Shown: positions 3,235-44,702 of the stretch, in pieces
How positions within the stretch are numbered: the stretch's first letter is position 1
How the letters are laid out: each line of letters opens with the position of its first letter
Sequence record: MT764208.1
Source of the DNA: Escherichia phage JEP8
Direction: 5' to 3' (one strand)
Length of the DNA: 64,000 nucleotides
Notes under the pieces: model-generated
What the model saw: only the letters and a program-made list of their open reading frames with translations
Database searches by the model: none
What the model was told of the DNA's origin: nothing
Position numbers and translations under genes: made by a program

Positions 3235-3263
3235 ATTATAGGGGAATCGACTTGGTTTGTCAA
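3235..3263 (-). promoter_or_regulatory. sigma70-type early promoter upstream of gene 43 (TTGACA-N17-TATAAT)
   Basis: Minus strand: TTGACA (3263..3258), 17-nt spacer, TATAAT (3240..3235), then GGAGGA RBS and ATG at 3202. Confidence 0.6.
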
Positions 3264-3284
3264 TACCCCTATCCCATCAGTATC

Positions 3285-3647
3285 TTAGCGTCCGATCTGA
3301 TATTTCTCGATCAGAGTCCACTCTTCTTTCTGTTTGAAAGACAGTACACGGAAATTATTAACTTCGGTAGTTTCAAAATCACTATCAATTAGGGTACATA
3401 GATTCCACTGCGCCAGAAGTTTTGCAATGTTATTACGGCGTAATTCATCTTCCCACGTCATTTTAACACTACGACCATCTAATTTCAACAACTCCTTGAA
3501 ATGAACGATGTAATAGCGCCCTTTCTTCTGGAGAATATGACAAGACTGATACAGAGTCTTGTCTCGATTGTTGGCAATGCCGCAGCGGGTTAAAGTCTCC
3601 TTAATTTTAAGGAAGTTTTCAGGACTAATCAAATTAATTTCAATCAT
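3285..3647 (-). CDS. regA: Translational repressor RegA
   Basis: MIEINLISPENFLKIKETLTRCGIANNRDKTLYQSCHILQKKGRYYIVHFKE... closely matches T4 RegA; position between 62 and 43 as in T4. Confidence 0.9.
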   Translation of the reverse strand: MIEINLISPENFLKIKETLTRCGIANNRDKTLYQSCHILQKKGRYYIVHFKELLKLDGRSVKMTWEDELRRNNIAKLLAQWNLCTLIDSDFETTEVNNFRVLSFKQKEEWTLIEKYQIGR

Positions 3648-3648
3648 T

Positions 3649-4227
3649 TTACCACCTTTCTATAATCTTTTTAAGTCGTTTCCTTTCTGTCTGATTCTTA
3701 GTAACACCCGCCAAAAGTTCATCGGTCGCATACGGTTTAATGTGCTTCAATAACTTGTCCATATATCCCTTTTCATTAGCCAAATCGAGATAAAACCGGG
3801 CGTCATCCATATTTACACAATATGCTTTCGCCACTGCCGTTAAAACCAATTTTTGGTCCAATTCTTCTGTTAGTTTAGCCCATTTACCGTATCGTTTCCC
3901 CTTAGAAATACTCTGTAAGAGATAATCAAAATGCATTTGATCTGGGAGGCCATGACCGATTAAATTCATCACATACGCGCTATATAGACAATCTGCGTGC
4001 TGGGAAAGAGCGGTGTTAATCCATCTCTGGTTATATGCAGAATTGTTTCCCACATTAACGCGCTGTTTATCTAAGGTGATATGATCCATCAGAGCAAATA
4101 ATGCATTGTCGGTTTTCTCGGTGAACGTGTCCGCTAATTCAGACACCTTTTCCCAATCACGAGAGCGCCATGCAATTTCATGCTCGTTTAATTGTGTATC
4201 ATCTTCACCGAAAAATTGACCTAACAT
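3649..4227 (-). CDS. 62: Clamp loader small subunit gp62
   Basis: Size and position between 44 and regA; motifs NEHEIAW..DW, MNLIGHGL, KGKRYGKWAKL match T4 gp62. Confidence 0.85.
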   Translation of the reverse strand: MLGQFFGEDDTQLNEHEIAWRSRDWEKVSELADTFTEKTDNALFALMDHITLDKQRVNVGNNSAYNQRWINTALSQHADCLYSAYVMNLIGHGLPDQMHFDYLLQSISKGKRYGKWAKLTEELDQKLVLTAVAKAYCVNMDDARFYLDLANEKGYMDKLLKHIKPYATDELLAGVTKNQTERKRLKKIIERW

Positions 4228-5201
4228 TATACGAACTCCAATTCAACCATTAATTGCATTAACAAAAAGACAATGTGAATCTCTTTATCAGCCGCGTGCG
4301 CAAACATCTGATTATTTTCACCGATGATCTCAGTGAGACGAATAATCGACGCTGGCTTAACTTGAGTATACAACTCATTATAAAGTTTCTTGACAAATTG
4401 AGCGTATGTATTGGTATATCGTGGCGCAAGTTTACGCACATTAGCAAACTGTTTAGTTTTAAGTGCTTCCACTACATCGGTTACTTCGGTATTGCTACTT
4501 TCGATAACCATACTCAATACACCAGCATCAATTTTACCGTGTTTTGCGTAACGGTCCAAAAGTTTCATTACGCGCCGGAAATCTGGGAAGTTCTGCTTAA
4601 CCAGTTCCGCCAATACGCGCATTTCTTCTACTGGAACACCTTCTTTATCAAGAATTGCTTTACACCGGACGATCATTTCTTTCATCATGCGAAGCTGGTC
4701 ATCTTTAGTCGGAGATCCAAACGTGATTGGATCAAATCGAGATCTCAACGCTGGGATAATACCTTCTAGATCGTTTGCTGTGATAATGAAGGTCACATTG
4801 TTTGAGTATGCCTCGGAGAAACTACGCAAGTGTCTTTGAGCATCAGCCAGCCCTGCTCGGTCATACTCATCGATAATAACAACTTTGCCTTTTTCTCGTT
4901 TTTCTTCATCGAGTGATACACTCTGCGCAAAGCGTGTAATCTCATCTCGGATAAAGTCAATCTTACAATCTGCGCCGTTAACAAACAGATAATCAACACC
5001 CACATCTTCACAAAGCGCCTTAGCAACGGTTGTTTTACCAGTACCCGGCGATGGGCTATGCAGAATCATTGAAGGGATTCGGCCTTGTTTAACGATCTGC
5101 GCGAAGATCTTTTTATCTGCTTCCGGCAGAATACATTCAGAAATTGATTTCGGACGGTATTTCTGTTCCCACTGAAACTCATTTTCATTAACACTCAGCA
5201 T
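4227..5201 (-). CDS. 44: Clamp loader large subunit gp44 (AAA+ ATPase)
   Basis: Walker A SPSPGTGKTT, Walker B VVIIDEYD, EQKYRP N-terminal motif as in T4 gp44. Start set to ATG at 5201 (GAGAGGTG RBS). Confidence 0.9.
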   Translation of the reverse strand: MLSVNENEFQWEQKYRPKSISECILPEADKKIFAQIVKQGRIPSMILHSPSPGTGKTTVAKALCEDVGVDYLFVNGADCKIDFIRDEITRFAQSVSLDEEKREKGKVVIIDEYDRAGLADAQRHLRSFSEAYSNNVTFIITANDLEGIIPALRSRFDPITFGSPTKDDQLRMMKEMIVRCKAILDKEGVPVEEMRVLAELVKQNFPDFRRVMKLLDRYAKHGKIDAGVLSMVIESSNTEVTDVVEALKTKQFANVRKLAPRYTNTYAQFVKKLYNELYTQVKPASIIRLTEIIGENNQMFAHAADKEIHIVFLLMQLMVELEFV

Positions 5202-5265
5202 ATAATCACCTCTCACAAATTACATCATTAAAAAGGGGAGTATAATACTCCCCACAAACATTATA

Positions 5266-5952
5266 TTAGTCGGTGTAGCTGGAGTCAAGGTCACACGCGA
5301 TCATATAAGATACGGTTTCACTTGCCAGCCATACAGCCTTACGGCGAGTGAAGCTCAGTTTGTAATCACCGAAGTCAGTAGCAACCAGTTTCATGTTGTC
5401 TTTACGAATAAAGAAATGGAAGTCGGCGGTTCCGGTATATTCGCCCATGTCAAGACAAAACATCTCATTAGGATTGTTTTTGTCAATCTCTTCCCAGCCT
5501 TTGATCATCAGACGACCATCAATCGGTAGAAATTCAAGGCGGTCCACTTTAAGCTGATTGCTCATTTTCATAAGCTGTTTCAGATCGTCGTTGCTCAATT
5601 CGTAATCTACATCGCTTGCAGGTGGAGTAACTCGGCCTTTCGGTGATACGATAGCGGCAGCACTAGCACCAGGATAGTTAATTTTCAGTCGATCGTTAGA
5701 CACACGAATGTTTCCAGTGCGGTTATCAACCGTAATATCTGCTTCATCGCCTACCAGATTCAGAATACCCAAGAAAGAGTTAAGATCGTAAATCCCAATT
5801 TCGTGTTCCAGTTCTTGATTCAGAGTCGCTTCACCATATACAACGTTTGTCATGTTTTTGGTGATCAGCACATTTCCTTTTTTCAGGATGATACCTGGGT
5901 TAATAGCGGAAAAGTTTTTCAGGGTAGCAATGGTTTCTTTAGTCAGTTTCAT
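5266..5952 (-). CDS. 45: Sliding clamp gp45
   Basis: MKLTKETIATLKNFSAINPGIILK... matches T4 gp45 (MKLSKDTTALLKNFATINSGIMLK); 228 aa. Confidence 0.9.
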   Translation of the reverse strand: MKLTKETIATLKNFSAINPGIILKKGNVLITKNMTNVVYGEATLNQELEHEIGIYDLNSFLGILNLVGDEADITVDNRTGNIRVSNDRLKINYPGASAAAIVSPKGRVTPPASDVDYELSNDDLKQLMKMSNQLKVDRLEFLPIDGRLMIKGWEEIDKNNPNEMFCLDMGEYTGTADFHFFIRKDNMKLVATDFGDYKLSFTRRKAVWLASETVSYMIACDLDSSYTD

Positions 5953-5982
5953 CAAATCACCTTTATCATGTTAATCAATTAA

Positions 5983-6381
5983 TTACGGGTTCACTTCGTG
6001 CTCATTTTGAATCTTTAGCATTCTTTCGATAAATTTTTTCTCGGCTTCCTTATCGGATGAGTGAGTATACTTCAATCCAATGTAAGCTGTCAAGTATTGT
6101 TGCAGAGCATAGACAGTAACAGGATTCTTTGCGGTCTTTTTTCCGTCGAGATATACCAGATCACCACGAACATCAAACGCAAGTTTACGACGAATCACAT
6201 CATCAACAAATTTATCTAGGACAAAATACCACTCAATACACTCTATCCCGTGACGGTAGTTCATTACATCATTATCTTTGATATAATCAAACGGAATATG
6301 ACATAATTTACTATTTTGTAGGATGAATAGCATTTGTTCTTTTAAGCTCATACGTTTCATTCTATCACTTCCCATCAGCAA
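5983..6381 (-). CDS. Hypothetical protein at the rpbA position between 45 and 46
   Basis: 132-aa ORF; assignment by position and size only. Confidence 0.5.
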   Translation of the reverse strand: MLMGSDRMKRMSLKEQMLFILQNSKLCHIPFDYIKDNDVMNYRHGIECIEWYFVLDKFVDDVIRRKLAFDVRGDLVYLDGKKTAKNPVTVYALQQYLTAYIGLKYTHSSDKEAEKKFIERMLKIQNEHEVNP

Positions 6382-9777: not shown

Positions 9778-10025
9778 CGTACAGACTCCATAGACCCACG
9801 AGCAATAACATTCTGGGTAATATCAGCAACCTTACGGGATACGATGGTTGCTAGTTCCAGTCTAGTGATATTGTCTCGGTCGAAAGGAATTTCATCATGT
9901 GTCCACATCCCGTAATTAGAACGGAAGGATAGCATATGTTGACCATTCCGAACAACCTCAAAAACTCGGATCTTAGTAAACTTCTCTAAACTTGCGTTAA
10001 ATTCTTTCAGTGTGTCGGTAATCAT
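9774..10025 (-). CDS. Hypothetical protein
   Basis: 83-aa ORF directly upstream of gene 47. Confidence 0.5.
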   Translation of the reverse strand: MITDTLKEFNASLEKFTKIRVFEVVRNGQHMLSFRSNYGMWTHDEIPFDRDNITRLELATIVSRKVADITQNVIARGSMESVR

Positions 10026-10080
10026 AATAACCTCCCATCAATTTTTTAGAGAGTATAACGGGGATTTCTCCCCGCGTCAA

Positions 10081-11106
10081 CTAACTTTTTGCGCTATTTA
10101 CTTCGGCTAAAAGCTCATCGGAGATACGCTTAACTGCCGCAAGTTCTTCCGGTTCTAGGTTTTGTTCTTCCAGATATTCATAGACCATCTGAATAGTGCT
10201 TTTAACTTCAATAACACCTGTTTCCTGTGATGCGCTACTCTCCAGCTTATGGACCACTTTTAGCTTGTGTACAACGGCCTCTAACGCGCTTTCTAACTTA
10301 GTTAACCCATTATCAGCGACCGTTGCAATTAGGCGCACACTAAGCCCTTTAAAGCGTTCTACATCGATTTTATCATCTGACGGGTAAGTGATACGCACAT
10401 GATAAGTTTTGTCATTCTGGATAAACTCCTTTTTGTGTGTATCTGTATCGAATACCCAAAAACCACGCGGATCATTTTCGTCGCCAGCCGTTAGTGTGTA
10501 TGGTGTACCGATATACGTTACGTTACCGCCATCACTGATAGTATGAAAGTGACCGGAAAACACTTCACGGTATTTCTTGAGGAAGTCCGCGCTATAACCT
10601 TCGGATTTTAACCCTTTATAGAAATAGTAGCCGGACAATTCCCAATGGCCTACACAATATTCGCTGAATGAATTTTGAATAAACTCTAAAACCTCGGATT
10701 TATTGTCATCACAAAACCACGGGAACAGGTCGAATGATACCCCATCAAAGGTAACTGTTTCCGGCTTATCAATAACCTTAATGCAATCATACTGGCTTAA
10801 CACTTCGCGCGGTGCGTTAGGCTGGATCTTATTGCGTTTAAACATATCATGATTCCCGACCGTGATATAACAGGTGATTCCTGCCTCTTCCAGTAATGGG
10901 ATGACCTTAGTACGGTTAAATTTCATGGTTTCATGTGTGATAGCCTTGCGACAATCAAACCAATCCCCTGTTTGAATCCATATCTTAATACCATTTTCTT
11001 TAGAATAATCAACAGCTTTCTTGATCGTGTCTAAAATATACTCATGCACCCACGGATCATCGCCACCGATACCAGTATGCAGATCACCCAAAAGCAAAAT
11101 TTTCAT
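10081..11106 (-). CDS. 47: Recombination nuclease subunit gp47 (SbcD/Mre11-like phosphoesterase)
   Basis: MKILLLGDLHTG, GDWFD, GNHD, GHWEL...GHFH phosphoesterase motifs; near-collinear with T4 gp47. Confidence 0.9.
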   Translation of the reverse strand: MKILLLGDLHTGIGGDDPWVHEYILDTIKKAVDYSKENGIKIWIQTGDWFDCRKAITHETMKFNRTKVIPLLEEAGITCYITVGNHDMFKRNKIQPNAPREVLSQYDCIKVIDKPETVTFDGVSFDLFPWFCDDNKSEVLEFIQNSFSEYCVGHWELSGYYFYKGLKSEGYSADFLKKYREVFSGHFHTISDGGNVTYIGTPYTLTAGDENDPRGFWVFDTDTHKKEFIQNDKTYHVRITYPSDDKIDVERFKGLSVRLIATVADNGLTKLESALEAVVHKLKVVHKLESSASQETGVIEVKSTIQMVYEYLEEQNLEPEELAAVKRISDELLAEVNSAKS

Positions 11107-17315: not shown

Positions 17316-17499
17316 ATTCAATTACCCCGAACTCGTTTACAATCTGCGCTTTATAGTAACCACCGCGAGATGCCAATAGATAAGCTGGTCTTAGGTATTC
17401 GTATTCACGGATTTCTACTTGTGCGTTTTCAGTTTCCCAAATCAGTAAAGTCCACATATTTGATTCTCCTGTAAAGTTGTATCTCGTCTTGATGAATAT

Positions 17500-17528
17500 A
17501 GTATAGGGGATCTCGCGATCCCCGTCAA
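17500..17528 (-). promoter_or_regulatory. sigma70-type early promoter cassette
   Basis: Minus strand TTGACG-N17-TATACT followed by the conserved ...AGGAGAAUCAAAU leader. Confidence 0.5.
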
Positions 17529-17532
17529 GAAT

Positions 17533-18060
17533 TTATTTTAAATTTTTTCGAATGTATTCAGACCATTCCTTCCCTGTCATTTCGGACCCGTTCTGGAAAC
17601 TGAAATATTCATAAGGCATCGAGTCAAGATAAAACAGGATCATACATCGCGCCATATAATACCAATCACGATTAAAGTAAACTACGTTATCACCAGTGCC
17701 ATCAACCCCTTTATCATAACCATCGCGGGTACGGGCTACCCATTGAATAGTATCAGTTTTCTCACGGATAGTAACAGGTTCCCAATATCCAGCACATCCA
17801 GCATGACCACACGAACAAGTAAGGAAGTATTGGCCTTTTGCTTTGTTGTCATCCCATTCACGATGGATTGGTTCGACCTCGTGAAACAGTACCAAACAAT
17901 CATGATTATGCAACACTGGCTTACCATCAATCAATGCATGGAATGTATACAAACGACCAGTAGACAAATAGCTATCCTCACGCTCAACCAGTTCAATAGC
18001 AATCTTTTTAGCTCGTTCTTTGTGTCGTTGTGCTTTACGCTTACGGTTTAATGATTTCAT
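17533..18060 (-). CDS. Hypothetical Cys-rich protein
   Basis: Contains CSCGHAGCAGYWE; start set to the ATG with GAGGTG RBS (MKSLNRKRK...). Confidence 0.55.
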   Translation of the reverse strand: MKSLNRKRKAQRHKERAKKIAIELVEREDSYLSTGRLYTFHALIDGKPVLHNHDCLVLFHEVEPIHREWDDNKAKGQYFLTCSCGHAGCAGYWEPVTIREKTDTIQWVARTRDGYDKGVDGTGDNVVYFNRDWYYMARCMILFYLDSMPYEYFSFQNGSEMTGKEWSEYIRKNLK

Positions 18061-18077: not shown

Positions 18078-18620
18078 TCAAAGGTCGCGATATAGTACAT
18101 TATGAAAATGAGAACTTGCATTACCAATATTGTAGATAATAAATTCTTCATCCGGCGCTTGCGCTACAAATTGAGTATGAGCAACCGCCACAACCTTAAA
18201 AATACGATCCGTGATCTTGTGTTTAATTTCTGCCCCTACTTCCATAGGAACATATTCATTTGTTTCTGTTTCAGTCGCAAAACAGCCATCTTCTTCATAA
18301 GCACGAACAAATCGGTCGCAATCAGTACGCTTAACAAATTCAAGAGTATATAATTCTCGTGAATTGTCGGTATAGACCAATACAGAATTATTATGATAGC
18401 GAATCACATACAGGTTATTATCATCGTCAATTACGCAAAAGCTACGGATTCCTTCGCCTTGACTCCAGCAGATATTAACCACCGTTCCTCTAATAAAAAA
18501 ACTTTCCTTTAAATTAAAACTAGTCAATGTGCTAGCGTGCATTTTAACAACAACACCATCGCCAATTTCCAGTTTACGAAGTTTAACTTCTTTGCTCAGT
18601 ACACAAAACATCATCATCAT
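18078..18620 (-). CDS. Hypothetical protein
   Basis: 180-aa ORF with an upstream promoter cassette. Confidence 0.55.
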   Translation of the reverse strand: MMMMFCVLSKEVKLRKLEIGDGVVVKMHASTLTSFNLKESFFIRGTVVNICWSQGEGIRSFCVIDDDNNLYVIRYHNNSVLVYTDNSRELYTLEFVKRTDCDRFVRAYEEDGCFATETETNEYVPMEVGAEIKHKITDRIFKVVAVAHTQFVAQAPDEEFIIYNIGNASSHFHNVLYRDL

Positions 18621-18649
18621 GTTGTCCTCTCGTTGTTTTCGATGTGAGC

Positions 18650-18677
18650 ATTATACATTAGCTAATCAAGTTGTCAA
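18650..18677 (-). promoter_or_regulatory. sigma70-type early promoter (TTGACA-N16-TATAAT)
   Basis: Minus strand TTGACA (18677..18672) and TATAAT (18655..18650), then GCUCACAUCGAAAAC leader, RBS and ATG at 18620. Confidence 0.65.
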
Positions 18678-18683
18678 CACCCC

Positions 18684-18714
18684 AAAACGAAAAAGCCGAC
18701 CCTTTCGGATCGGC
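18684..18714 (-). terminator. Rho-independent terminator downstream of nrdD
   Basis: Minus strand AGCCGAUCC-GAAA-GGGUCGGCU hairpin followed by UUUUUCGUUUU. Confidence 0.65.
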
Positions 18715-18720
18715 TGAAAA

Positions 18721-20629: not shown

Positions 20630-21124
20630 TTATTTTACCAGTTCTGCTAATTCTTTTTCTTTAGCTTCCAGTTCAGCTTTAAGCTGTTTAATCTCTTGTC
20701 GCTTCTTATTAGCGGCTTCCTGCTTACTATTGCGGATAATCTGATCTAGATACAACTCCCAATCCTGAATATTTTTGATAATATAACCGTCAACATTAAT
20801 TGGTCGGATATTTAGTACAGCTTCCAGTTTAGTCGCAAAAACTTTAATTGCTGGTGTGAAGTATTCATATTCGTTATCTTCAAACCAATAACCTAGACTT
20901 GCATTCTCAATACGAAGACGAAGTTCAAGATCAAGGTCTTTATCTTCGGTGTAAAGATCTTGCACATGCCCCATCGAACTAACAACAACTTTAAAACGAA
21001 TTTTATCAACACCACCAAACACATCAGTAAGGATACCAGCAATTGAGCTATTAGCGCAAGATTGGTCGCTGAATGCGTCAAGGTTTTCTTTAGTTACAGT
21101 ATACCAAACATCTTGTACCCACAT
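20630..21124 (-). CDS. Hypothetical protein, related to the WEVGKTY-family C-terminal region
   Basis: KVFATKLEAV resembles KRVFATKLQRDF of 14469..14945; C-terminal coiled coil. ATG preceded by the GAGGATTATATT leader. Confidence 0.55.
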   Translation of the reverse strand: MWVQDVWYTVTKENLDAFSDQSCANSSIAGILTDVFGGVDKIRFKVVVSSMGHVQDLYTEDKDLDLELRLRIENASLGYWFEDNEYEYFTPAIKVFATKLEAVLNIRPINVDGYIIKNIQDWELYLDQIIRNSKQEAANKKRQEIKQLKAELEAKEKELAELVK

Positions 21125-21153
21125 AATATAATCCTCTCGTTGTTAAGTGGGAG

Positions 21154-21181
21154 TATTATAGCATACTCCCTTCGCATGTCA
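21154..21181 (-). promoter_or_regulatory. sigma70-type early promoter (TTGACA-N16-TATAAT)
   Basis: Minus strand TTGACA (21181..21176), TATAAT (21159..21154), then GAGGATTATATT-ATG leader. Confidence 0.6.
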
Positions 21182-22357
21182 AGCACTAACTTTTTTCTTT
21201 ACTGCTTTCACCTTCTGGCGAATTGCTCGAATCTCTTCGATCTCTTTTTCAGTCTCTTTAACAATTTCTTTGCGATTCTGAATATCTGTATCGAGATTAT
21301 CATCAAGTTTAGGCAGCATGTCAATCAAGAACTTTTTAAAGTCTTTCAGGTTTCGGATAACAGCACCTTCACCCATTACCGCCACCCCTACACCATCCGG
21401 CAGATCACCAAACAGCTTAACCAGTTCAGACAGATGATCATGATCTTCTAGTGCTTCTTCCGGTTCAGATGGCAGTTCAACAAAGTTATAACGTTCATCA
21501 TTGCTGATCAAGTGATACCAGCAAAGCCCAAAAGATTTAGGAGTATATTCTACACCATCAACTTCAACCGCGTCAACACTTCCGAAAGAATCTACTTTAG
21601 TTGCCTTAAATCCGTGTTCCAGCTTTTGAACAATTTCAATAACATGACTGGATACGGTTTCCGTATTAAACCAATGAGGCAAATTATGTGGATTTGGCTT
21701 GTAGCGTTCGCCTACTTTAAATCTCTGACCACGCTCTTGCATACGGACATATTCAACTCGCGTGATTTCCGCGAAGTATTCAAATTCGCCACCGTCAAAC
21801 ACACAAGCCCATTGATCACAAAAACGATCTGCCTTAACAGTTTCACCTTTCGCGGTGATCATGGTAGCTGATCCGTGCAATTCTTCTTCAACTAAAAAGC
21901 CATATTCGACAAAATCAACAAGTTTCATAGCTTCTTTGTGATCTGGATCATGCTCTCCCCAGAATCGCTTAAATTCTTGCAAACCTTCTGGGGTAAACGA
22001 ATAACATTTACCTTTTTCAAAGTAAGTCGGCATTGCATCCTCTTTCTTGTTCATCGCTTCGTATGCCTCTTTTGAGATGCGTTTAAAGTATTTACGCTCA
22101 TTGTGCATAATCATAGTAGCCCAATAATCAACAATATCATTAGCGGAATAAACTACATCTCCAGCTTCAATAGTAATAACATGACCGTGGTCATCTTTTT
22201 CTAATACTTTAAAGCCCTTTTCTACGATTTCAGCAACCCGAATATGACCACGGCGCGAAGCATCGGTCAGAATAATTGAATAGCGAGAAAAGTCTAGAAA
22301 CTCATCTTTACCACCTTCACGGAATGCATAGTAATGACCTTCAAAGAATTTAGCCAT
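21179..22357 (-). CDS. Hypothetical protein (392 aa) with repeated domains of the paralog family
   Basis: Shares ERKYFKRISK..., GFKVLEKDD... and a C-terminal ...NLKDFKKFLIDM helical region with 22414..22980. Confidence 0.6.
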   Translation of the reverse strand: MAKFFEGHYYAFREGGKDEFLDFSRYSIILTDASRRGHIRVAEIVEKGFKVLEKDDHGHVITIEAGDVVYSANDIVDYWATMIMHNERKYFKRISKEAYEAMNKKEDAMPTYFEKGKCYSFTPEGLQEFKRFWGEHDPDHKEAMKLVDFVEYGFLVEEELHGSATMITAKGETVKADRFCDQWACVFDGGEFEYFAEITRVEYVRMQERGQRFKVGERYKPNPHNLPHWFNTETVSSHVIEIVQKLEHGFKATKVDSFGSVDAVEVDGVEYTPKSFGLCWYHLISNDERYNFVELPSEPEEALEDHDHLSELVKLFGDLPDGVGVAVMGEGAVIRNLKDFKKFLIDMLPKLDDNLDTDIQNRKEIVKETEKEIEEIRAIRQKVKAVKKKVSA

Positions 22358-22413
22358 AATATAATCCTCTCGTTGTTTAGATGTGAGTATCTTACTACTC
22401 CCGTTTCATCATG

Positions 22414-22994: not shown

Positions 22995-23267
22995 TCATTT
23001 CACTAATTGAACAGCACGGAACAGAATGCGCTCACACGGAAGCAGCATAAATTCCCAACGCGGATCAAAGTCTTTAGCGGTGTATGTTTTCCCATCAACC
23101 GAGATTTCACTTACATAACCAACAGGTGACACTTTAAGAACAGTAAATCCATTCTTGATGACTTCGTAGGTATCTTTCACTCCTTCGTATTCATCATCTA
23201 AGAAGTCTTTACGTGCTTGCTCAGATTTAAAAACATAGGCAACACCGGATTTAAACATCTTACGCAT
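22995..23267 (-). CDS. Hypothetical protein, WEVGKTY-family single-domain member
   Basis: VAYVFKSEQARKDF...GFTVLKV...ISVDGKTY; start set to the ATG with AAGGAGAA RBS. Confidence 0.55.
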   Translation of the reverse strand: MRKMFKSGVAYVFKSEQARKDFLDDEYEGVKDTYEVIKNGFTVLKVSPVGYVSEISVDGKTYTAKDFDPRWEFMLLPCERILFRAVQLVK

Positions 23268-23330
23268 TGTTGATTCTCCTTCTTGATTAGATGGGAGCAT
23301 TTTACTACTCCCATTTCTTATTGTCAACTA

Positions 23331-26180: not shown

Positions 26181-26489
26181 TTATTTCACGTTAACGCCGT
26201 CATCAATCCAGCCGACGCTATTTTGTTTAACAGTTTTACCATAGGATGCATACTTAATCAAGCATGGTTTAACATCATTATCAAATCTTCCTAAACGTAC
26301 TCCCAAATCAGGAATATCCATGTATGCGGCTTTATATCCCCATGTGCCGTATTCAGAATCAATCTCAACCGGACGGCCTTTAAAAGCATACACTACACCG
26401 TGACGGTCAACGATAACATAGCGATAGCCAGCCGGAAGATACACAGTTTCGCCGTAAACTTTAACTGGAGTAGCAGAAGAGATAAACAT
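26181..26489 (-). CDS. Hypothetical protein
   Basis: Start set to the ATG (MFISSATPVKVYG...) preceded by GAGGATTATATT. Confidence 0.55.
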   Translation of the reverse strand: MFISSATPVKVYGETVYLPAGYRYVIVDRHGVVYAFKGRPVEIDSEYGTWGYKAAYMDIPDLGVRLGRFDNDVKPCLIKYASYGKTVKQNSVGWIDDGVNVK

Positions 26490-26523
26490 AATATAATCCT
26501 CACATCGTTCATTTGATGCGGTC

Positions 26524-26552
26524 ATTATATGATAACCGCATTTTCATGTCAA
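26524..26552 (-). promoter_or_regulatory. sigma70-type early promoter (TTGACA-N17-TATAAT)
   Basis: Minus strand TTGACA (26552..26547) and TATAAT (26529..26524). Confidence 0.6.
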
Positions 26553-26559
26553 CAGTTTT

Positions 26560-26869
26560 TTAAAAATCTTCTTCCGGTTTATATCGACCGTCATCGACTG
26601 GTTTTGGACTGAATCCTTTATGCGTGCGCGGCTTCGCTTCCGGTTTACCAGCAATCATCAAACCAAAACATTTCAGCCCCTTATAACACATAACAATATC
26701 AACCACGGTCCACGTTATAGGCCATACGATTGCAGCAATACAAAATGCTCCTGTATCGACCTCTTTGGTGTCCTTGTCGAATCTGGCGTACAAGCAGAAT
26801 ACTAGATACGAGATCATTGCACCAGTAGTCCAGATATAAAGCACATTAACAATATCTTGTGTTGTCACA
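26560..26869 (-). CDS. Hypothetical membrane protein
   Basis: Hydrophobic segments; probable GTG start at 26869 with AGGAGG 5 nt upstream. Confidence 0.5.
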
Positions 26870-26878: not shown

Positions 26879-27157
26879 TTACATGTCTTGCAGTGCATAA
26901 AAGCATTTTTCTTCATAGTCATAGAAAATGTCAAAGTATGCTTTTTCCACATACTCGCCATTAATCCAAGCGGCAGTAACAATCAGAGTGGTCCAGTTAG
27001 ATCCGCTCTCAACGGTAAAGGTTTTAATACCCAGCTTCGCTGCCAAGTCGAACGCAAACCGGACGCAACCACGGCAGGAAGTGATATTGGAAGTTTTGAT
27101 TTTAAAGCCACCGCGAGTTTTAGAAATTTCTACTTTAGCGAAAGACAGGTTGCTCAT
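26879..27157 (-). CDS. Hypothetical protein
   Basis: Start at the ATG with AAGGAGAATCAAA leader (MSNLSFAKVEI...). Confidence 0.55.
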   Translation of the reverse strand: MSNLSFAKVEISKTRGGFKIKTSNITSCRGCVRFAFDLAAKLGIKTFTVESGSNWTTLIVTAAWINGEYVEKAYFDIFYDYEEKCFYALQDM

Positions 27158-27199
27158 TTTGATTCTCCTTAAGAAAGTGTGTTTCGTTTTGATGTGTGT

Positions 27200-27228
27200 A
27201 GTATAGGGGATCACCGATCCCCTGTCAA
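27200..27228 (-). promoter_or_regulatory. sigma70-type early promoter cassette (TTGACA-N17-TATACT)
   Basis: Minus strand TTGACA (27228..27223), TATACT (27205..27200), then the ...CAUCAAAACGAAACAC... leader. Confidence 0.55.
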
Positions 27229-27236
27229 CAACTTTT

Positions 27237-27500
27237 TTATGATTTTAGTGAATTAACCACCACATCAAAATGATGTACAGAGTACACCTTATTAAACACA
27301 TATTCATCGTGTTTAGGAATCGCCCCTAATCGCTCTATTTCGCTCGCTAACACGATAAAACGTTTATCCGGTGCATTTACCTTATATGCTTCAACAACGC
27401 ACGGAAAACGCGTTTTAGCGAGTTCGGGATAGTTTTCTGACTCCATCAGGACAATGAATACCCTATTACATTGATTGTAGAATCCGGTTTTTGATTTCAT
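27237..27500 (-). CDS. Hypothetical protein
   Basis: Start trimmed to an internal ATG to limit overlap with the upstream ORF; start uncertain. Confidence 0.45.
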   Translation of the reverse strand: MKSKTGFYNQCNRVFIVLMESENYPELAKTRFPCVVEAYKVNAPDKRFIVLASEIERLGAIPKHDEYVFNKVYSVHHFDVVVNSLKS

Positions 27501-28954: not shown

Positions 28955-29245
28955 TCAAATTGTAGTTTTGCGAAGATGGTCATTACATGCTTTTAATGCA
29001 TCGGTCGCGGTGTCATAGCGAGTATTATCATAGCACCAATAACCATCTGTCAACTGATAAATTAATCCATCCTTTTTAGCTTCGATGAAAGACAATTCTT
29101 TGAAAGTTTCTACTTTCTTTGCTGATACTCCACGGTCACGTCGCTTATACAGTTTAGCTAAAATGCGTTCAGCTTGTTCCTCTTTATCTCCAGACAGATC
29201 CCAGATGATGTTTCGGATATGCTTGATTAATTGTTCAGTGGTCAT
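28955..29245 (-). CDS. Hypothetical protein
   Basis: 96-aa ORF downstream of a promoter cassette. Confidence 0.55.
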   Translation of the reverse strand: MTTEQLIKHIRNIIWDLSGDKEEQAERILAKLYKRRDRGVSAKKVETFKELSFIEAKKDGLIYQLTDGYWCYDNTRYDTATDALKACNDHLRKTTI

Positions 29246-29274
29246 CTTTGATTCTCCTTAGTTGGTATGCGTGC

Positions 29275-29302
29275 ATTATAGCATTGTGATTATCTTTGTC
29301 AA
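29275..29302 (-). promoter_or_regulatory. sigma70-type early promoter (TTGACA-N16-TATAAT)
   Basis: Minus strand TTGACA (29302..29297), TATAAT (29280..29275), then GCACGCAUACCAACUAAGGAGAAUCAAAG-AUG. Confidence 0.65.
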
Positions 29303-29307
29303 CACCC

Positions 29308-29340
29308 AAAAACAAAAAAGGCTACCCCGAAGGATAGCCC
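29308..29340 (-). terminator. Rho-independent terminator downstream of the gp38-like gene
   Basis: Minus strand GGGCUAUCC-UUCG-GGGUAGCC hairpin followed by UUUUUUGUUUUU. Confidence 0.65.
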
Positions 29341-30180: not shown

Positions 30181-30402
30181 TTAGATGACCTCTGCTTCAC
30201 CATCCAGGAAGAAAGACCATGTTTTGTTAGGATAGCGAAGCGCCCATGATTCAGCAGTTTTAACACCAGCTTCGAACAATTGACGGCTGGTTACTTTAGC
30301 CATACCATCTTCGATGGCAACGTTTTCAATAATCATCGGGTACTTAGCGCCACGCATGAAACCGAAACCAGCGGAAGATTTGATAATTTTAACAGTTGCC
30401 AT
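30181..30402 (-). CDS. Hypothetical protein (73 aa), co-transcribed upstream of the gp38-like gene
   Basis: ATG preceded by the AGGAGAATCAAAA leader and a promoter cassette. Confidence 0.55.
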   Translation of the reverse strand: MATVKIIKSSAGFGFMRGAKYPMIIENVAIEDGMAKVTSRQLFEAGVKTAESWALRYPNKTWSFFLDGEAEVI

Positions 30403-30443
30403 TTTTGATTCTCCTAGAAAGTGTATCTCGTTTCGATGTGTGT

Positions 30444-30473
30444 ATTATGCAATAACACCGGAACGCTGTCAAC
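30444..30473 (-). promoter_or_regulatory. sigma70-type early promoter (TTGACA-N18-CATAAT)
   Basis: Minus strand TTGACA (30473..30468) and CATAAT (30449..30444), then the ACACACAUCGAAACGAG leader. Confidence 0.6.
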
Positions 30474-30490
30474 ACTTTCTAAGAAAAATT

Positions 30491-31457: not shown

Positions 31458-31656
31458 TCTTCACGGTCTCCATAATTGTTTTGTAAGCCAGTTTAAGATG
31501 ATCACCGAAAAACTTTGCAGTGTTACCCTTCGGATCGCGGAGCATGGTTTCTACGATCTCATCGGCAGTAACAATTTCTCCTTTCTTTGCTGCATGTTCT
31601 ACCATATACTTCAAAGTTTCTTCGGAAGCAAGTGCTGCGGCTACTGGATTAATCAT
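31447..31656 (-). CDS. Hypothetical protein
   Basis: 69-aa ORF downstream of a promoter cassette. Confidence 0.5.
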   Translation of the reverse strand: MINPVAAALASEETLKYMVEHAAKKGEIVTADEIVETMLRDPKGNTAKFFGDHLKLAYKTIMETVKNAK

Positions 31657-31685
31657 TTTGATTCTCCTTTGTTGTCGATGTATGC

Positions 31686-31714
31686 ATTATGCTATACCCT
31701 ATTCCGGTTGTCAA
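31686..31714 (-). promoter_or_regulatory. sigma70-type early promoter (TTGACA-N17-CATAAT)
   Basis: Minus strand TTGACA (31714..31709) and CATAAT (31691..31686). Confidence 0.6.
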
Positions 31715-31720
31715 CACCTA

Positions 31721-31750
31721 AAAACGAAAAAGCCACCCTTTCGGATGGCT
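31721..31750 (-). terminator. Rho-independent terminator
   Basis: Minus strand AGCCAUCC-GAAA-GGGUGGCU followed by UUUUUCGUUUUU. Confidence 0.6.
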
Positions 31751-31983
31751 TTTGATTATATTTTATTCTAATCCATTTGTATAGTAGTGTTTGAATCGAC
31801 CTTTGCTAAACTCGTTAAACATAGTAACCAATTTACCACCACTTTCCAATGATAGCACTTCCTCGTCTTAGACGGGTCTTCCGATTCGGCAGTAATTGAA
31901 CACGCGAAAGTATGAGGAAGCCAAATAGTTGTGTTAATGCTAGTATTCTTTTACTTCTGGTATGCATCCCACAGTGACTAACA

Positions 31984-34859: not shown

Positions 34860-35450
34860 TCAATAGCGTTTAGTCTTAAGAATGCCTTTACTCTTTAGAT
34901 GGTTAGCCTTTTTTAGTACGTCATCAGCATAACCTAATCCGGCTTTATAGTTCCATCCAGCATTGTAAGAAGCTAGCGCGAGTCTGATATTACCGTTTCG
35001 AATATCCAGCCAGTATGCTAACTCATCCATCGCGTAGAATGCAGAAACCTCGCGATTCATGATAAAGTTGATAGTCTGGCGATCACTCATTTTAACACCG
35101 CGCTTTGCATTTTTCGCTTTCACCGTTTTAAGGTAATTTTGAAATAATCCATAAGCATGATGATTTTTCTTTGGTGCTAAGTTTGCACCCGCGCTTGATT
35201 CTTGCCATGCGATACCCGCCAGGATGTGACCTAAACCCTTTCCGTTATAGCGAATATTCGGATGGTACTTTTTCAACTTACCGCTTTTCTCGAATTGCTC
35301 GCCGTATTGATAGGCGAAATGTAAATTATCTAGTTGGTGTGCTGTAAAGTTGTCTATCGGCGCTTTTTTGATCGGTGCGCTAGTCGATGCGTGTGTAGCA
35401 CCAACGGCTAGTGACAGACTCAATACTATCGCTTTTAGAACTTTTAACAT
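34860..35450 (-). CDS. Secreted lytic transglycosylase (SLT)-domain protein
   Basis: Signal peptide MLKVLKAIVLSLSLAVGATHA; SLT-like motifs IAWQESS and AYGLFQ. Confidence 0.6.
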   Translation of the reverse strand: MLKVLKAIVLSLSLAVGATHASTSAPIKKAPIDNFTAHQLDNLHFAYQYGEQFEKSGKLKKYHPNIRYNGKGLGHILAGIAWQESSAGANLAPKKNHHAYGLFQNYLKTVKAKNAKRGVKMSDRQTINFIMNREVSAFYAMDELAYWLDIRNGNIRLALASYNAGWNYKAGLGYADDVLKKANHLKSKGILKTKRY

Positions 35451-35535
35451 TAATTTCTCCTGTTTGGCTTAACTTTCTGATTTCATAATATAGCCCTATC
35501 ACCAGAAAGTCAAGCATTAACTCAACCAATTTCCA

Positions 35536-35962: not shown

Positions 35963-36298
35963 TTATCCTTTCTTAAACAAATTGCGAAGCCAGTATACAA
36001 ACGGGATTTCTTTAAACTTGAACTTGTCAATAGTTAATTCTTTAGTAGCAAGATGAATACCATAAGCATCATGTGTAACTATATGCCATTTTCTATAGTC
36101 CAAATGTGAACAACCGTCTGGATCTAGGTTAATAAGAGTTTCTCGCTCACTAGGATTATTTTTCCACAATTTTGTAATAGGATCGCACATAATTCGACCT
36201 AGCGTACCATGAATAATCTCACAACGGTAAAGTTTTCCAGCAGTGAGATAGGCGCACCCGTCATAGTCGGTATAAACAAACACTTCTTTAACACTCAT
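35963..36298 (-). CDS. Hypothetical protein, DGxCSHL small-paralog family
   Basis: DPDGCSHLDYRKWHIV; start at the ATG with AGGAGTATTAAA leader (the ORF-track start overlaps the promoter). Confidence 0.5.
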   Translation of the reverse strand: MSVKEVFVYTDYDGCAYLTAGKLYRCEIIHGTLGRIMCDPITKLWKNNPSERETLINLDPDGCSHLDYRKWHIVTHDAYGIHLATKELTIDKFKFKEIPFVYWLRNLFKKG

Positions 36299-36319
36299 TT
36301 TAATACTCCTTTGTTTCGA

Positions 36320-36355
36320 TGGGGGTATATTACTACCCCCGATCATGTGTGTCAA
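36320..36355 (-). promoter_or_regulatory. sigma70-type early promoter cassette (TTGACA-N17-TAATAT)
   Basis: Minus strand TTGACA (36355..36350) followed by TAATAT and the CCCAUCGAAACAAAGGAG leader. Confidence 0.5.
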
Positions 36356-36616
36356 CTACTTTTTCAAGATTTTTTTGATCACATTCCAAAGACCTTTATT
36401 CTCAGGTTGTTTTGGTTCTTCGATCAGTGTCCATGTTCGACCGTCTAAGTGTGCACAATTTTTAAGACAAATAAAAATCTGGTGTCCCTTATCATCACGG
36501 ATATAACCACTATTCGCAAATCTTTCATGTGGTGTATATTCATACAGTGTATTTGGTGTAATATACTTGCGGTTACTATAAGGTGTCATCACATACATCA
36601 TGGTACTAACTCCCAT
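36356..36616 (-). CDS. Hypothetical protein, DGxCSHL small-paralog family
   Basis: GYIRDDKGHQIFICLKNCAHLDGRTWTL. Confidence 0.5.
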   Translation of the reverse strand: MGVSTMMYVMTPYSNRKYITPNTLYEYTPHERFANSGYIRDDKGHQIFICLKNCAHLDGRTWTLIEEPKQPENKGLWNVIKKILKK

Positions 36617-41314: not shown

Positions 41315-41641
41315 TTAGAAAGAAACAGTTTTCAAGAAATCCAGATTTTCAGTACCGAATACAGAAAAGTAGTGTTTTCCTTTTTCGGTTTTAGAGAAAG
41401 CGATTGTCTTCTCTACATGGTGACGGAAGCCAGACAGACGATCACCCAGGTCAAGGCGGCAAGCGTAAGTAGTGCCGTTTTCGAAAGTAACCTCGATTTG
41501 AGTTTTGTCGTATTCGCTTTCATAGGCTTTTGCTGCCGCTTCCAGTGCTTTACGCTCGAAGTCTTCGAAGTGGAATACTTCGTTTGCGTTAGCGAATACA
41601 GAAGATTCAGAGAAGATAACTTTAACAGATACTGGTTTCAT
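41315..41641 (-). CDS. Hypothetical protein
   Basis: 108-aa ORF downstream of a promoter cassette. Confidence 0.55.
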   Translation of the reverse strand: MKPVSVKVIFSESSVFANANEVFHFEDFERKALEAAAKAYESEYDKTQIEVTFENGTTYACRLDLGDRLSGFRHHVEKTIAFSKTEKGKHYFSVFGTENLDFLKTVSF

Positions 41642-41682
41642 TTGATACTCCTTAGTAGTTCGTGTTTCGTTTCGATGGGTGT

Positions 41683-41711
41683 ATTATGCTATACACCCTC
41701 TCGTGTGTCAA
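41683..41711 (-). promoter_or_regulatory. sigma70-type early promoter (TTGACA-N17-CATAAT)
   Basis: Minus strand TTGACA (41711..41706) and CATAAT (41688..41683), then the ACACCCAUCGAAACGAAACAC leader. Confidence 0.6.
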
Positions 41712-41719
41712 CAACTTTT

Positions 41720-41908
41720 TTAGTCTTTTTTCATAATTTCTAGAGCAGTTTCTACAGCACCTTTCCAACCCTCCCACATAATGGACATAGTAATGAAGTT
41801 AAAGCACCCGCAGGAATCAGCCTTTTTAGAAATAAACCATTCTGCAAACTCTTCGCTCATACCATGCTCTTTAGCGGATTCGCGTAATTGTTCAATTTGG
41901 TCTTCCAT
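41720..41908 (-). CDS. Hypothetical protein
   Basis: 62-aa ORF. Confidence 0.45.
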   Translation of the reverse strand: MEDQIEQLRESAKEHGMSEEFAEWFISKKADSCGCFNFITMSIMWEGWKGAVETALEIMKKD

Positions 41909-42118: not shown

Positions 42119-42346
42119 TTAAAGTTGTTCTGCAATGTATGCGGTGCATTTACGGAGTTTAGCCATCGCACCACCTTTCATGTCGCTTGCACCTACAAGG
42201 TTCATAATCTCTAAGCGGTCAGCCGGATTCAGTCTAGTAGCCCAGATCTGGTTAGCCAGTTCCATTTTACCCATCTGCGGTTCCATCTCTAACAGTTCGC
42301 GCTCAAATTCGATAATTTCTTTTGCTGCGTCTTTAAAGTTAATCAT
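42119..42346 (-). CDS. Hypothetical protein
   Basis: 75-aa ORF. Confidence 0.5.
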   Translation of the reverse strand: MINFKDAAKEIIEFERELLEMEPQMGKMELANQIWATRLNPADRLEIMNLVGASDMKGGAMAKLRKCTAYIAEQL

Positions 42347-42412
42347 TTTGGTCCTCCCGTTTCGTTGATGGTTATATTGTAGGGGAGTTATCCTCCCCTG
42401 TCAACACTTTTA

Positions 42413-42598
42413 TCAGAAATATGCAATATAGTTTGCCAGTCCTACAGAGTCATCATTCGGCATTGCTTTTACTGCCAGTTCAAACCCTGCTTCAACTTTC
42501 TGTTTAGCGGATTCTTCGTTATAACCCCAGATTACCAGAATAGCTACTACGTTTTCTTTGCTTACTGCTTTAAGTGCTTTAGTGATGCGACGTGCCAT
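42413..42598 (-). CDS. Hypothetical protein
   Basis: 61-aa ORF downstream of a promoter cassette. Confidence 0.5.
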   Translation of the reverse strand: MARRITKALKAVSKENVVAILVIWGYNEESAKQKVEAGFELAVKAMPNDDSVGLANYIAYF

Positions 42599-42644
42599 AA
42601 TTTGATTCTCCGTTTAAGAAAGTGTGTTTCGTTTCGATGGGTGT

Positions 42645-42673
42645 ATTATGCTATAGGCCGGATCTGGTGTCAA
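42645..42673 (-). promoter_or_regulatory. sigma70-type early promoter (TTGACA-N17-CATAAT)
   Basis: Minus strand TTGACA (42673..42668) and CATAAT (42650..42645), then the CAUCGAAACGAAACAC leader. Confidence 0.6.
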
Positions 42674-42700
42674 CAACTTTTTTAAAAAAATTTTAGGCAA

Positions 42701-42725
42701 TAAAAAAGCCACTCCGAAGAGTGGC
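42701..42725 (-). terminator. Rho-independent terminator
   Basis: Minus strand GCCACUC-UUCG-GAGUGGC followed by UUUUUUAUU. Confidence 0.65.
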
Positions 42726-42876
42726 TTATAGGGAAGGTAGCGAATCTTCCTTGTCTCCAACCTGCTAGCGGACTAGCAAGTGAATGCTTTAGCGTACCGG
42801 ATCGCCCACATACGCTGTAATAAATGCGGCTAGGTGACGTCCAAATCATTCTAACCGCGCTGTCTTTAGTTCACTA

Positions 42877-44000: not shown

Positions 44001-44159
44001 ATTTGCTAATCGCTAAACCTAATCCGAAGAGAGCACCCGAGGCTACAGTATACCCGAAAGTTTCAAAGGCAGTAAAGACATCTAAGCCACCAGCTAACAG
44101 AGTTGCAGTAAACAGAGTACCAGCTACGAACATAAAAGTTTTACCGATAAATTTCATTT
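44001..44159 (-). CDS. Small membrane protein (52 aa, below ORF-track cutoff)
   Basis: Manual translation MKFIGKTFMFVAGTLFTATLLAGGLDVFTAFETFGYTVASGALFGLGLAISK; preceded by the AAGGAGAATCAAAAA leader. Confidence 0.4.
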
Positions 44160-44189
44160 TTTGATTCTCCTTTCGTTTCGTTTCGATGG

Positions 44190-44222
44190 GAGTATCTTAC
44201 TACCCCCGTTTCATGTTGTCAA
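44190..44222 (-). promoter_or_regulatory. sigma70-type early promoter cassette (TTGACA-N17-TAAGAT)
   Basis: Minus strand TTGACA (44222..44217) followed by TAAGAT and the CCCAUCGAAACGAAACGAAAGGAG leader. Confidence 0.5.
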
Positions 44223-44228
44223 CTATTT

Positions 44229-44603
44229 TTAAGAATATTTTACTTCGTCTACAATGTCTTTCATGACATTGATTTCCATTCCGGTCAGAACACGTTGGAA
44301 CATGTGCTGCACATACGCTTTCAGATATTCATTTGATGGCTTGCTATCGAAAGTCTTTTTAGTGTAGTAGTCATCACCGAAAGCTACTGTAATTACATTT
44401 TCGTCGTCGTTCCAAGCGATATAAGCAAATTTGCCGTTATCCCAGAAGCGAGCACTAATTGCTACTTTTGTTGAATCGAATCCTACTTCGCTGTGAGATT
44501 CAAGAACTACTTGCGTGCCAGTTTCTTTATGAATGTAGTAGCGGGATACTAAGTCAAAGTTACGGGTGTAGTGACATTCGAATTTATCTTTAAACATCAT
44601 CAT
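44229..44603 (-). CDS. Hypothetical protein
   Basis: 124-aa ORF. Confidence 0.55.
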   Translation of the reverse strand: MMMFKDKFECHYTRNFDLVSRYYIHKETGTQVVLESHSEVGFDSTKVAISARFWDNGKFAYIAWNDDENVITVAFGDDYYTKKTFDSKPSNEYLKAYVQHMFQRVLTGMEINVMKDIVDEVKYS

Positions 44604-44637
44604 TTTTTGATTCTCCTAAGTGTGTTTCGATGTGTGC

Positions 44638-44666
44638 ATTATGCTATAGTCGTTTATGGTTGTCAA
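44638..44666 (-). promoter_or_regulatory. sigma70-type early promoter (TTGACA-N17-CATAAT)
   Basis: Minus strand TTGACA (44666..44661) and CATAAT (44643..44638). Confidence 0.6.
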
Positions 44667-44672
44667 CACATA

Positions 44673-44702
44673 AAAACAAAAAACCCCGAAAAATTTTCGG
44701 GG
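44673..44702 (-). terminator. Rho-independent terminator
   Basis: Minus strand CCCCGAAAA-UUUUUCGGGG hairpin followed by a U-run. Confidence 0.6.

Follow-up and report, generated by a model that had tools for sequence, protein, structure and literature searches.

Probable promoter-early stem-loop cassettes of Escherichia phage JEP8: sequence family, stem-loop anatomy and limited association with gene-content differences

Background

Promoter-early stem-loop (PeSL) elements of the T4-like phages RB49 and Phi1 are described in the main text of Arbiol et al. 2010 (PMC2839356), which counts ~51-52 such motifs per genome. According to that text, a PeSL combines a near-perfect sigma70 promoter, an AT-rich upstream tract, a polyG/polyC stem-loop and, at its 3' side, a Shine-Dalgarno sequence and start codon; the stem-loop takes one of five alternative positions, the commonest being between the promoter boxes or over the -10 box. 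Most PeSLs precede ORFans of the hyperplastic regions in that account, and a few stand at gp43, nrdD and hoc; promoter and terminator activity is documented for a few RB49 and Phi1 elements by lacZ reporters, and mini-circle junctions and crossovers are located between the -10 box and the Shine-Dalgarno sequence. The main text of Comeau et al. 2014 (PMC4122927) describes the RB49-type PeSL by the promoter TTGACA-N17-TATAAT and a G(n)-loop-C(n) stem. Here we analyze recurrent promoter and stem-loop cassettes in a 64,000-nucleotide stretch of Escherichia phage JEP8 (MT764208.1; one strand, 5' to 3'; "the window" below), in which a preliminary description had noted units of terminator, promoter and leader.

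Two further lines of published work bear on these cassettes. Nolan et al. 2006 (PMC1524935) found the predicted early-promoter consensus of RB49 to agree with 5'-end mapping, the early 5' ends having been mapped, by that article's account, by Desplats 2002; the same article reports that RB49 is without motA and AsiA orthologues from other T4-like phages only. In addition, the target of RegB/S1 is an 11-nt single-stranded GGAGRAYARAA, typically in the Shine-Dalgarno region of early mRNA (PMC1702504).

Recognition of the cassette family

The recurrent units of the window are very probably PeSL cassettes of an RB49-type T4-like phage; this class is already known, and the finding is its correct re-identification rather than a discovery. 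The window belongs to Krischvirus, the RB49-like coliphages: its 15-kb and 25-kb stretches matched ~80 phage records, of which the best were full-length at 96-97% and all Krischvirus (including RB49, Phi1, GEC-3S and JSE), with RB49, Phi1 and GEC-3S ~96-97% identical to it. Minus-strand genes occupy ~1 to 47 kb, including those for DNA polymerase, clamp loader, gp46/47, gp55, nrdD/G, dam, gp38, tk and regB (Pfam REGB_T4, E 2e-48) as well as many small open reading frames (ORFs), and are followed by a plus-strand baseplate module; gp49 endonuclease VII is also encoded. A search of the window against Rfam at gathering thresholds returned zero matches, and a tRNA search of it found none.

The window as a whole contained 27 matches to TTGACA-N16-18-TATAAT at 11/12 or better (26 on the minus strand) versus 2.6 +/- 1.4 in dinucleotide shuffles, and six perfect 12/12 matches versus 0.18; independent promoter scans were consistent with this enrichment. 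The 18 sigma70 promoters named in the preliminary description all held: each scored at least 10/12 against the consensus (six of them 12/12), and a co-oriented Shine-Dalgarno sequence and ATG lay downstream at 18/18. Two of their coordinate ranges required one-base corrections (21154-21181 to 21155-21182, and 30444-30473 to 30444-30472). Below, minus-strand sites are named by their promoter's highest coordinate (3263 = promoter 3263-3235).

Nine more sigma70 matches of at least 11/12 lie within coding regions, all on the gene strand (39531, 34843, 23923, 21324, 16930, 14348, 7111, 6993 and 6093). They are without leader, ribosome-binding site or stem-loop and were excluded from the cassette count; since they exceed the 2.6 expected on both strands, they may be internal promoters.

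A hidden Markov model built from 20 aligned units found those 20 in the window and then only noise, the scan adding no further member. Under leave-one-out searching with nhmmer, 17 of the 18 sites were recovered at E-values of 2e-6 to 1e-12 and site 3263 was marginal (E=0.1), while sites 10080 and 35513 were not recovered and have only the hexamers in common with the family. By profile comparison, then, all but one of the 18 sites belong to a genuine sequence family. The resulting catalogue holds 17 core units (16 on the minus strand at 17.4-44.7 kb and one on the plus strand at 58.6 kb) and three peripheral promoter/stem-loop sites; most core units precede genes called "hypothetical protein" in RB49, Phi1 and GEC-3S. 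The copies had been called near-identical, a description that did not survive alignment: from -15 of the -35 box to the ATG, pairwise identity averaged 0.48 and reached at most 0.75 (pair 31714/44666). Before the -35 box stands an AT-rich tract, which is either an A-tract such as AAAAAAGTTG or the T-tract of a terminator, and in 11/20 units the stop codon of the upstream gene falls 0-8 nt before the -35 box or inside it.

Conservation among T4-like phages

A thymidine kinase search of IMG/VR returned one Krischvirus locus and 11 distant T4-like ones; comparisons were therefore made on GenBank records. When RB49, Phi1 and nine further Krischvirus loci were searched with the cassette profile, each core unit that they cover had a copy at the homologous position; the RB49 and Phi1 loci cover 16 core units and hold a homologous copy of all 16. 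Furthermore, the GEC-3S record already annotates promoters and terminators at cassette positions. All sequence-level features of a PeSL are thus present, and RB49 and Phi1 carry orthologues at matching positions; family membership is therefore secure, the finding is an already known one, and the PeSL identification proposed in the preliminary description proved right. In eleven tk-centred loci of distant T4-like contigs the profile gave nothing convincing, which fits the published view that the PeSL consensus is lineage-specific.

Leaders and ribosome-binding sites

Two elements are common to the 17 core units: the motif C.C.CATC.AAAC at the start site and leader, and a ribosome-binding site that is either GGAGAATCAAA or GAGGATTATATT. 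The conserved leader noted earlier was borne out by strong over-representation of its motifs in the window: CATCNAAAC occurred 15 times versus 2.5 expected, GGAGAATCA ten times versus 0.6 and GAGGATTATATT six times versus 0.07. Leaders measured 26-46 nt and ended in GGAG or GAGG followed by ATG in 20/20 units. Five of them (27228, 30472, 41711, 42673 and 17528) form a long-leader subfamily with a common ...CATCGAAACGAAACACACTTTCTTA... and 67-73% identity. The exact ribosome-binding site GAGGATTATATTATG (the GAGGATTATATT site) was also found at three promoterless genes on the minus strand (40718, 28956 and 22992), and is thus a general strong translation start that is not specific to the cassettes.

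GGAGAAUCAAA, the ribosome-binding site seen in the largest number of cassettes, agrees with the RegB/S1 target at 10/11 positions. Sites with at least 10/11 matches to that target numbered 12 in the window (4.5 expected), ten of which lay in cassette leaders; a second leader class, GAGGAUUAUAUU, is without GGAG. From these matches we suggest that most cassettes probably also program RegB-dependent inactivation of their own mRNA. A term search of the text of Arbiol et al. 2010 (PMC2839356) found RegB unmentioned there.

Stem-loop anatomy

The preliminary description had each promoter preceded by a GC-rich hairpin with a U-run. That arrangement was found at six units only (18677, 29302, 31714, 42673, 44666 and 58636), but the others carry the stem-loop within the promoter or have a weak one: it lies in or spans the -35 box or spacer in five (3263, 10080, 17528, 27228 and 42404), overlaps the -10 box and discriminator in six (21182, 23327, 26552, 36355, 41711 and 44222), is degenerate at 22417, and is not strong at 30472 and 35513. 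A GC-rich hairpin directly followed by a U-run, as in an intrinsic terminator, therefore describes 6/20 units and not the class; promoter-internal stem-loops are followed by TATACT... or ATCGAAAC... instead. The best local hairpin was at or below the 5th percentile (-12.1 kcal/mol) of 150 random control segments in 14/20 units. In their placement relative to the promoter, the stem-loops reproduce the PeSL subclasses of Arbiol et al. 2010 (PMC2839356).

These classes are sorted by how far the upstream stop codon stands from the -35 box: at least 43 nt goes with an upstream terminator, and at most 8 nt with an internal stem. In the upstream-terminator units the gaps are 43 nt (nrdD), 44 nt (gp38), 43 nt (57B) and 51 nt (gp8), the remaining two lying in long intergenic regions; at 21182 and 22417, the TGA in TTGACA is itself the upstream stop codon. 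Stem-loop position thus follows the room left by the upstream stop codon.

Conclusions on the stems rest on folds of each single cassette, a fixed-register covariation count on the stems over the -10 box having been set aside because their registers slightly differ. Several lines of evidence point to the sense RNA: i) the sense strand was at least as stable as the antisense strand in 17/18 hairpins, with summed energies of -232 versus -189 kcal/mol; ii) G.U pairs, which are A.C mismatches on the opposite strand, occur in 10/18 stems; iii) stem letters vary among copies with pairing kept (GGGAGTA/TACTCCC, GCGGTTAT/ATGACCGC and GGGTGTAT/ATACACCC). We argue from these properties that the stem-loop would work in the sense-strand read-through transcript of the upstream gene, as a terminator, attenuator or 3' cap, and not as a protein operator or a symmetrical cruciform. 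Loop length (3 to 7 nt) and stem position also vary among copies.

The competing idea, that the inverted repeats act as DNA, either as operators of a dimeric phage repressor for early-promoter shut-off or as cruciforms cut by endonuclease VII to start recombination, draws on the many repeats that coincide precisely with the spacer or the -10 box, where an operator would block RNA polymerase, on the lack of motA in RB49 with AsiA orthologues reported only in other T4-like phages (PMC1524935), and on the gp49 gene of the window, but is rendered highly improbable by those same varied stem letters with kept pairing, by the variable loops and positions, and by the G.U pairs and consistently more stable sense strand that indicate an RNA structure.

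Cassettes and gene-content differences

The window was aligned by megablast chaining to 11 Krischvirus loci, and differences were collapsed to 18 distinct events at 8 to 57 kb. Indel or replacement events touched a cassette in 4/18 cases versus 1.9 expected (P=0.11 if events are placed uniformly, ~P=0.16 relative to gene junctions), so that the proposed coincidence of synteny breakpoints with cassettes was neither convincingly borne out nor refuted. The modular shuffling proposed earlier is accordingly only weakly visible in the window, at the gp38 breakpoint in cassette 29302 and at an insertion hot spot abutting cassette 31714.

The clearest case is the gp38 module (29269-30181), which is absent at the locus in G2494, G37-3 and MIZ5; these gp38-less genomes have a single variant cassette between ORF080 and ORF078. 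At the left breakpoint, 29269, homology resumes exactly between the -10 box and the leader of cassette 29302. In the same three genomes the gp38 adhesin gene is replaced by 37 bp that place a different promoter (TTGACA-N16-TATAAT with a spacer stem) on the same leader (12474-12541 of locus L020). Immediately upstream of the cassette 31714 terminator is the insertion hot spot, at 31762-31977. Phi1 has ORF084.1 there, and Brandy, SFHK24 and JK32 have a 2.1-kb ORF of unknown function; the corresponding intergenic region of the window (31754-31983, minus strand) spans 230 nt, and the inserts are without a second flanking cassette. Moreover, two replaced gene segments terminate at cassettes 17528 and 18677. 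The cassettes had also been said to bracket the gp38 and methyltransferase modules: for gp38 this is supported by the one breakpoint inside 29302, but dam lies only loosely between 26552 and 23327, within an eight-gene operon.

Most of the remaining events were insertions of homing-endonuclease type or crossovers between paralogous genes. The insertions were located at 11105, 19704, 24121, 37525-37548, 38714, 47195-47217 and 51519-52309, and a +703-bp insertion of Brandy at 48504 may be an untyped candidate of the same type. The insert at 51519-52309 (plus strand, 789 bp) is specific to the window among the five genomes covering it, being absent in RB49, Phi1, JSE, Brandy and JK32; it lies among the baseplate genes, between gp5.1 and gp5.4, and its 250-aa ORF (51567-52319) has an HNH_3 domain. 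Crossovers between tandem paralogues explain some events, for example at ORF073/074, whose 5' ends are alike over 77 nt (79% identity). The extra small gene ORF074 of RB49, Phi1, GEC-3S, Brandy and MIZ5 is flanked by 77-nt direct repeats (19985-20277 of locus L014), of which the window has one copy (27985-28061); this is consistent with unequal crossover with no cassette involved. The leftover events are divergent patches within genes.

A patch of ~260 bp (15983-16243, minus strand) at the junction of ORFs 15784-16284 and 16274-16810 has diverged beyond megablast alignment with RB49, Phi1, JSE, Brandy and JK32, and has flanks at ~96% identity; it looks like a local replacement within genes. 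In the gp43 region, a 1121-bp insert relative to GEC-3S (886-2008, minus strand) carries a 295-aa ORF (1027-1914) without a Pfam match, and the fragment upstream of it (1994-3232) has a polymerase exonuclease domain; Rfam found no group I intron at the insert, which may reflect either a split gp43 or the presence of a mobile element.

The cassettes can be recombination junctions, yet they are not the main source of gene-content differences in the window.

Proposed mechanism and its alternatives

Every unit is placed where two genes meet. Based on position and stability, the G-run/C-run stem-loop would form part of the sense transcript of the upstream gene. Where the spacer allows at least 43 nt, a canonical hairpin and U-run would terminate transcription upstream of the -35 box; where the stop codon lies at most 8 nt from the -35 box or inside it, the stem-loop would be pushed into the spacer or over the -10 box, and might only attenuate transcription or cap the upstream transcript. 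The near-consensus TTGACA-N17-TATAAT that follows the A-tract or terminator T-tract would be used by unmodified host sigma70 RNA polymerase immediately after infection, promoter activity being inferred from the published RB49 and Phi1 work. The short G/U-poor leader would then run from ~CATC to a strong ribosome-binding site, mostly GGAGAAUCAAA, at which phage RegB might later inactivate the mRNA. Since dispersed copies have ~70-100 bp in common, the cassettes could also serve as substrates of homologous recombination, with occasional gain, loss or swap of the flanking genes; at the gp38 junction such recombination is apparent from the alignment, and elsewhere in the window its trace is weak.

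Tentatively, the cassette could be viewed as a three-function unit, in which an upstream transcript is stopped or capped, sigma70 transcription starts, and the RegB/S1 target GGAGAAUCAAA times the shut-off of the driven gene, with GAGGAUUAUAUU leaders escaping RegB and the stem-loop position set by stop-codon room; we regard this combined scheme as possible, with the odds against it. If true, it would give two sub-classes of early-gene expression in a phage without MotA and AsiA.

Several observations weigh against reading the units as PeSL cassettes with these roles. Cassette positions are fixed across 11 genomes, and the enrichment of events at cassettes is not significant. Copies average only 48% identity, and their conserved columns are mostly functional motifs (-35, -10, start region and Shine-Dalgarno sequence). 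Furthermore, the ~12 promoter-internal stem-loops have no U-run and hence are not canonical intrinsic terminators, the RegB match is off at consensus position 8 (C for A), and all cassette activity in this phage would be an extrapolation from RB49 and Phi1.

The first two of these points, the low identity with conservation in functional columns, and the GAGGATTATATT site at promoterless genes 40718, 28956 and 22992 would also be expected if early promoters, terminators and strong ribosome-binding sites had each converged independently on the host optimum, with no cassette descent or recombination role. We consider such convergence improbable: leave-one-out E-values down to 1e-12 exceed what hexamers contribute, as the unrecovered hexamer-only sites 10080 and 35513 illustrate; the long-leader subfamily keeps its ...CATCGAAACGAAACACACTTTCTTA... 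at 67-73% identity without known functional need; the gp38 junction falls inside cassette 29302; and mini-circle junctions are described in the main text of PMC2839356.

Individual cassettes

Upstream of the DNA polymerase gene gp43 lies a peripheral cassette (3200..3278, minus strand, as are all units below unless stated) with TTGACA-17-TATAAT at 3263-3235, a GGGG...CCCC stem over the -35 box and spacer (dG -16.6), the Shine-Dalgarno sequence GGAGGAG and ATG 3202; the ORF downstream of it carries Pfam DNA_pol_B_exo1. Two other peripheral sites, both absent from the earlier list and both annotated as promoters in GEC-3S, fall outside the family. At 10023..10095, TTGACG-17-TATACT holds the spacer stem-loop CGGGGAGAAATCCCCG (dG -13.1) and the gp47 stop codon abuts the -35 box (leave-one-out negative); at 35448..35528, between regB and vs.1, stands the weaker promoter TTGACT-17-TATTAT.

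Six core units have an upstream terminator, five of them on the minus strand. At 18618..18715, downstream of nrdD, the hairpin 18715-18694 and its U-run are followed by TTGACA-16-TATAAT (dG -16.0; E 6e-8). The hairpin 29340-29319 of the unit at 29243..29340 ends gp38 (dG -14.2; E 4e-7), and that of the unit at 31654..31753 (31753-31728; dG -16.0; E 1.4e-12) has the insertion hot spot starting 9 nt upstream of it (31762). The unit at 42596..42727, which has a long leader, carries a hairpin and U-run (42727-42706) 33 nt upstream of the -35 box (dG -14.3; E 6e-11); this hairpin may instead be the terminator of an upstream non-coding transcript. At 44601..44703, the hairpin 44703-44683 and U-run lie downstream of 57B (dG -12.3; E 2e-12). 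The only plus-strand unit (58596..58696) has its terminator at 58596-58623 after gp8, then TTGACA-17-TATAAT (dG -15.1; E 1.7e-9), and precedes a 77-aa ORF within the baseplate module.

Core units with a spacer stem-loop were found at 17455..17543 (GGGGATCGCGAGATCCCC; dG -12.5; long leader; Shine-Dalgarno GGAGAATCAAA; ATG 17457; E 5.8e-7), at 27155..27243 (GGGGATCGGTGATCCCC; dG -12.0; long leader; Shine-Dalgarno GGAGAATCAAA; E 2e-10) and at 42344..42419 (GGGGAGGATAACTCCCC; dG -16.6; E 2e-6). The unit at 30400..30487, which has no strong stem-loop (dG -7.7), drives ORF080 upstream of gp38 through a long leader with the Shine-Dalgarno sequence GGAGAATCAAA (E 1.2e-10).

The stem-loop stands over the -10 box in the remaining core units. 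At 21122..21197 it is GGGAGTAT..ATACTCCC (dG -11.8), the ribosome-binding site is GAGGATTATATT and the TGA stop of frd.2 lies inside TTGACA (E 8e-7); at 22355..22432, which drives frd.2/goF, the stem is degenerate (dG -5.2), the ribosome-binding site is again GAGGATTATATT and the upstream stop is inside TTGACA (E 2e-9). The unit at 23265..23342 has ATGGGAGTA..TGCTCCCAT with one G.U pair (dG -13.1; E 1e-10), and that at 26487..26567, which heads the dam-containing operon, has ATGCGGTTAT..ATGACCGCAT and the ribosome-binding site GAGGATTATATT (dG -12.2; E 1.6e-7). At 36296..36370 GGGGGTA..TACCCCC follows an upstream TAG stop that abuts the -35 box (dG -14.3; E 6e-11), and at 41639..41726 GGGTGTAT..ATACACCC is combined with a long leader containing GAAACGAAAC (dG -13.5; E 1.7e-11). 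Finally, the unit at 44155..44237 has GGGGGTA..TACTCCC with one G.U pair (dG -9.5), with the leader (GAAAC)x3 and the Shine-Dalgarno sequence GGAGAATCAAA (E 4e-10).

A non-coding stretch downstream of ORF118

Between the stop codon of ORF118 and the terminator hairpin 42706-42727 lies a ~165-nt non-coding stretch (42700-42890, minus strand), preceded by the T4-late-promoter-like TATAAATA at 42886-42879. Its folding energy is -58.9 kcal/mol (z = -3.3), and it is 96-99.5% conserved among 11 Krischvirus genomes, with 1-2-nt indels only in one predicted hairpin; Rfam gave no match to it. The stretch is a candidate structured late RNA.

Comparison with known systems

Recognition of a published element class from sequence alone is confirmed here and its described anatomy is corrected. 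The value for phage biology is incremental: a catalogue of 17 core and three peripheral cassettes in a genome segment, to which are added evidence for a sense-RNA stem-loop, the spacing rule of the stem-loop and the concentration of RegB-like sites in cassette leaders. The main texts of PMC2839356 and PMC4122927 (figures and supplements aside) make no mention of the CATC(G)AAAC motif, the two classes of ribosome-binding site or the rule linking stop codon and stem-loop. As a caution, homing endonucleases and paralogue crossovers outweigh the cassettes in the gene-content differences of this region.

With the general arrangement of a terminator followed by a promoter at operon junctions, six units agree in their GC hairpin and U-run, in a promoter within ~15-35 nt and in a T-tract at the UP-element position, whereas the other cassettes are without a U-run and have the hairpin within the promoter. 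With the early promoters and RegB/S1 system of T4 (Durand et al. 2006, PMC1702504; Uzan and Miller 2010, PMC3014915) the window has in common early transcription by host sigma70, GGAG with an A-rich tract, and a regB gene. On the other hand, the -35 box is GTTTAC in T4 and TTGACA in the cassettes, RB49 differs from T4 in being without motA and with no asiA orthologue reported, and the RegB target in the window leaders is a predicted one with C for A at position 8.

The PeSLs of RB49 and Phi1 are the closest system. Association with indels was weaker in the window (4/18 events) than the 10/14 given for the RB49/Phi1 pair in the published text. The window cassettes share with them the genus and the positions, TTGACA-N17-TATAAT, the AT-rich tract with an upstream stop codon, a G(n)-loop-C(n) stem-loop that precedes the promoter, lies in it or overlaps it, the 3' Shine-Dalgarno sequence and ATG, the clustering before small ORFs of unknown function in the hyperplastic region, and one copy each at gp43 and nrdD. 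Between the window cassettes and the PeSLs of RB49 and Phi1 there is thus no essential difference.

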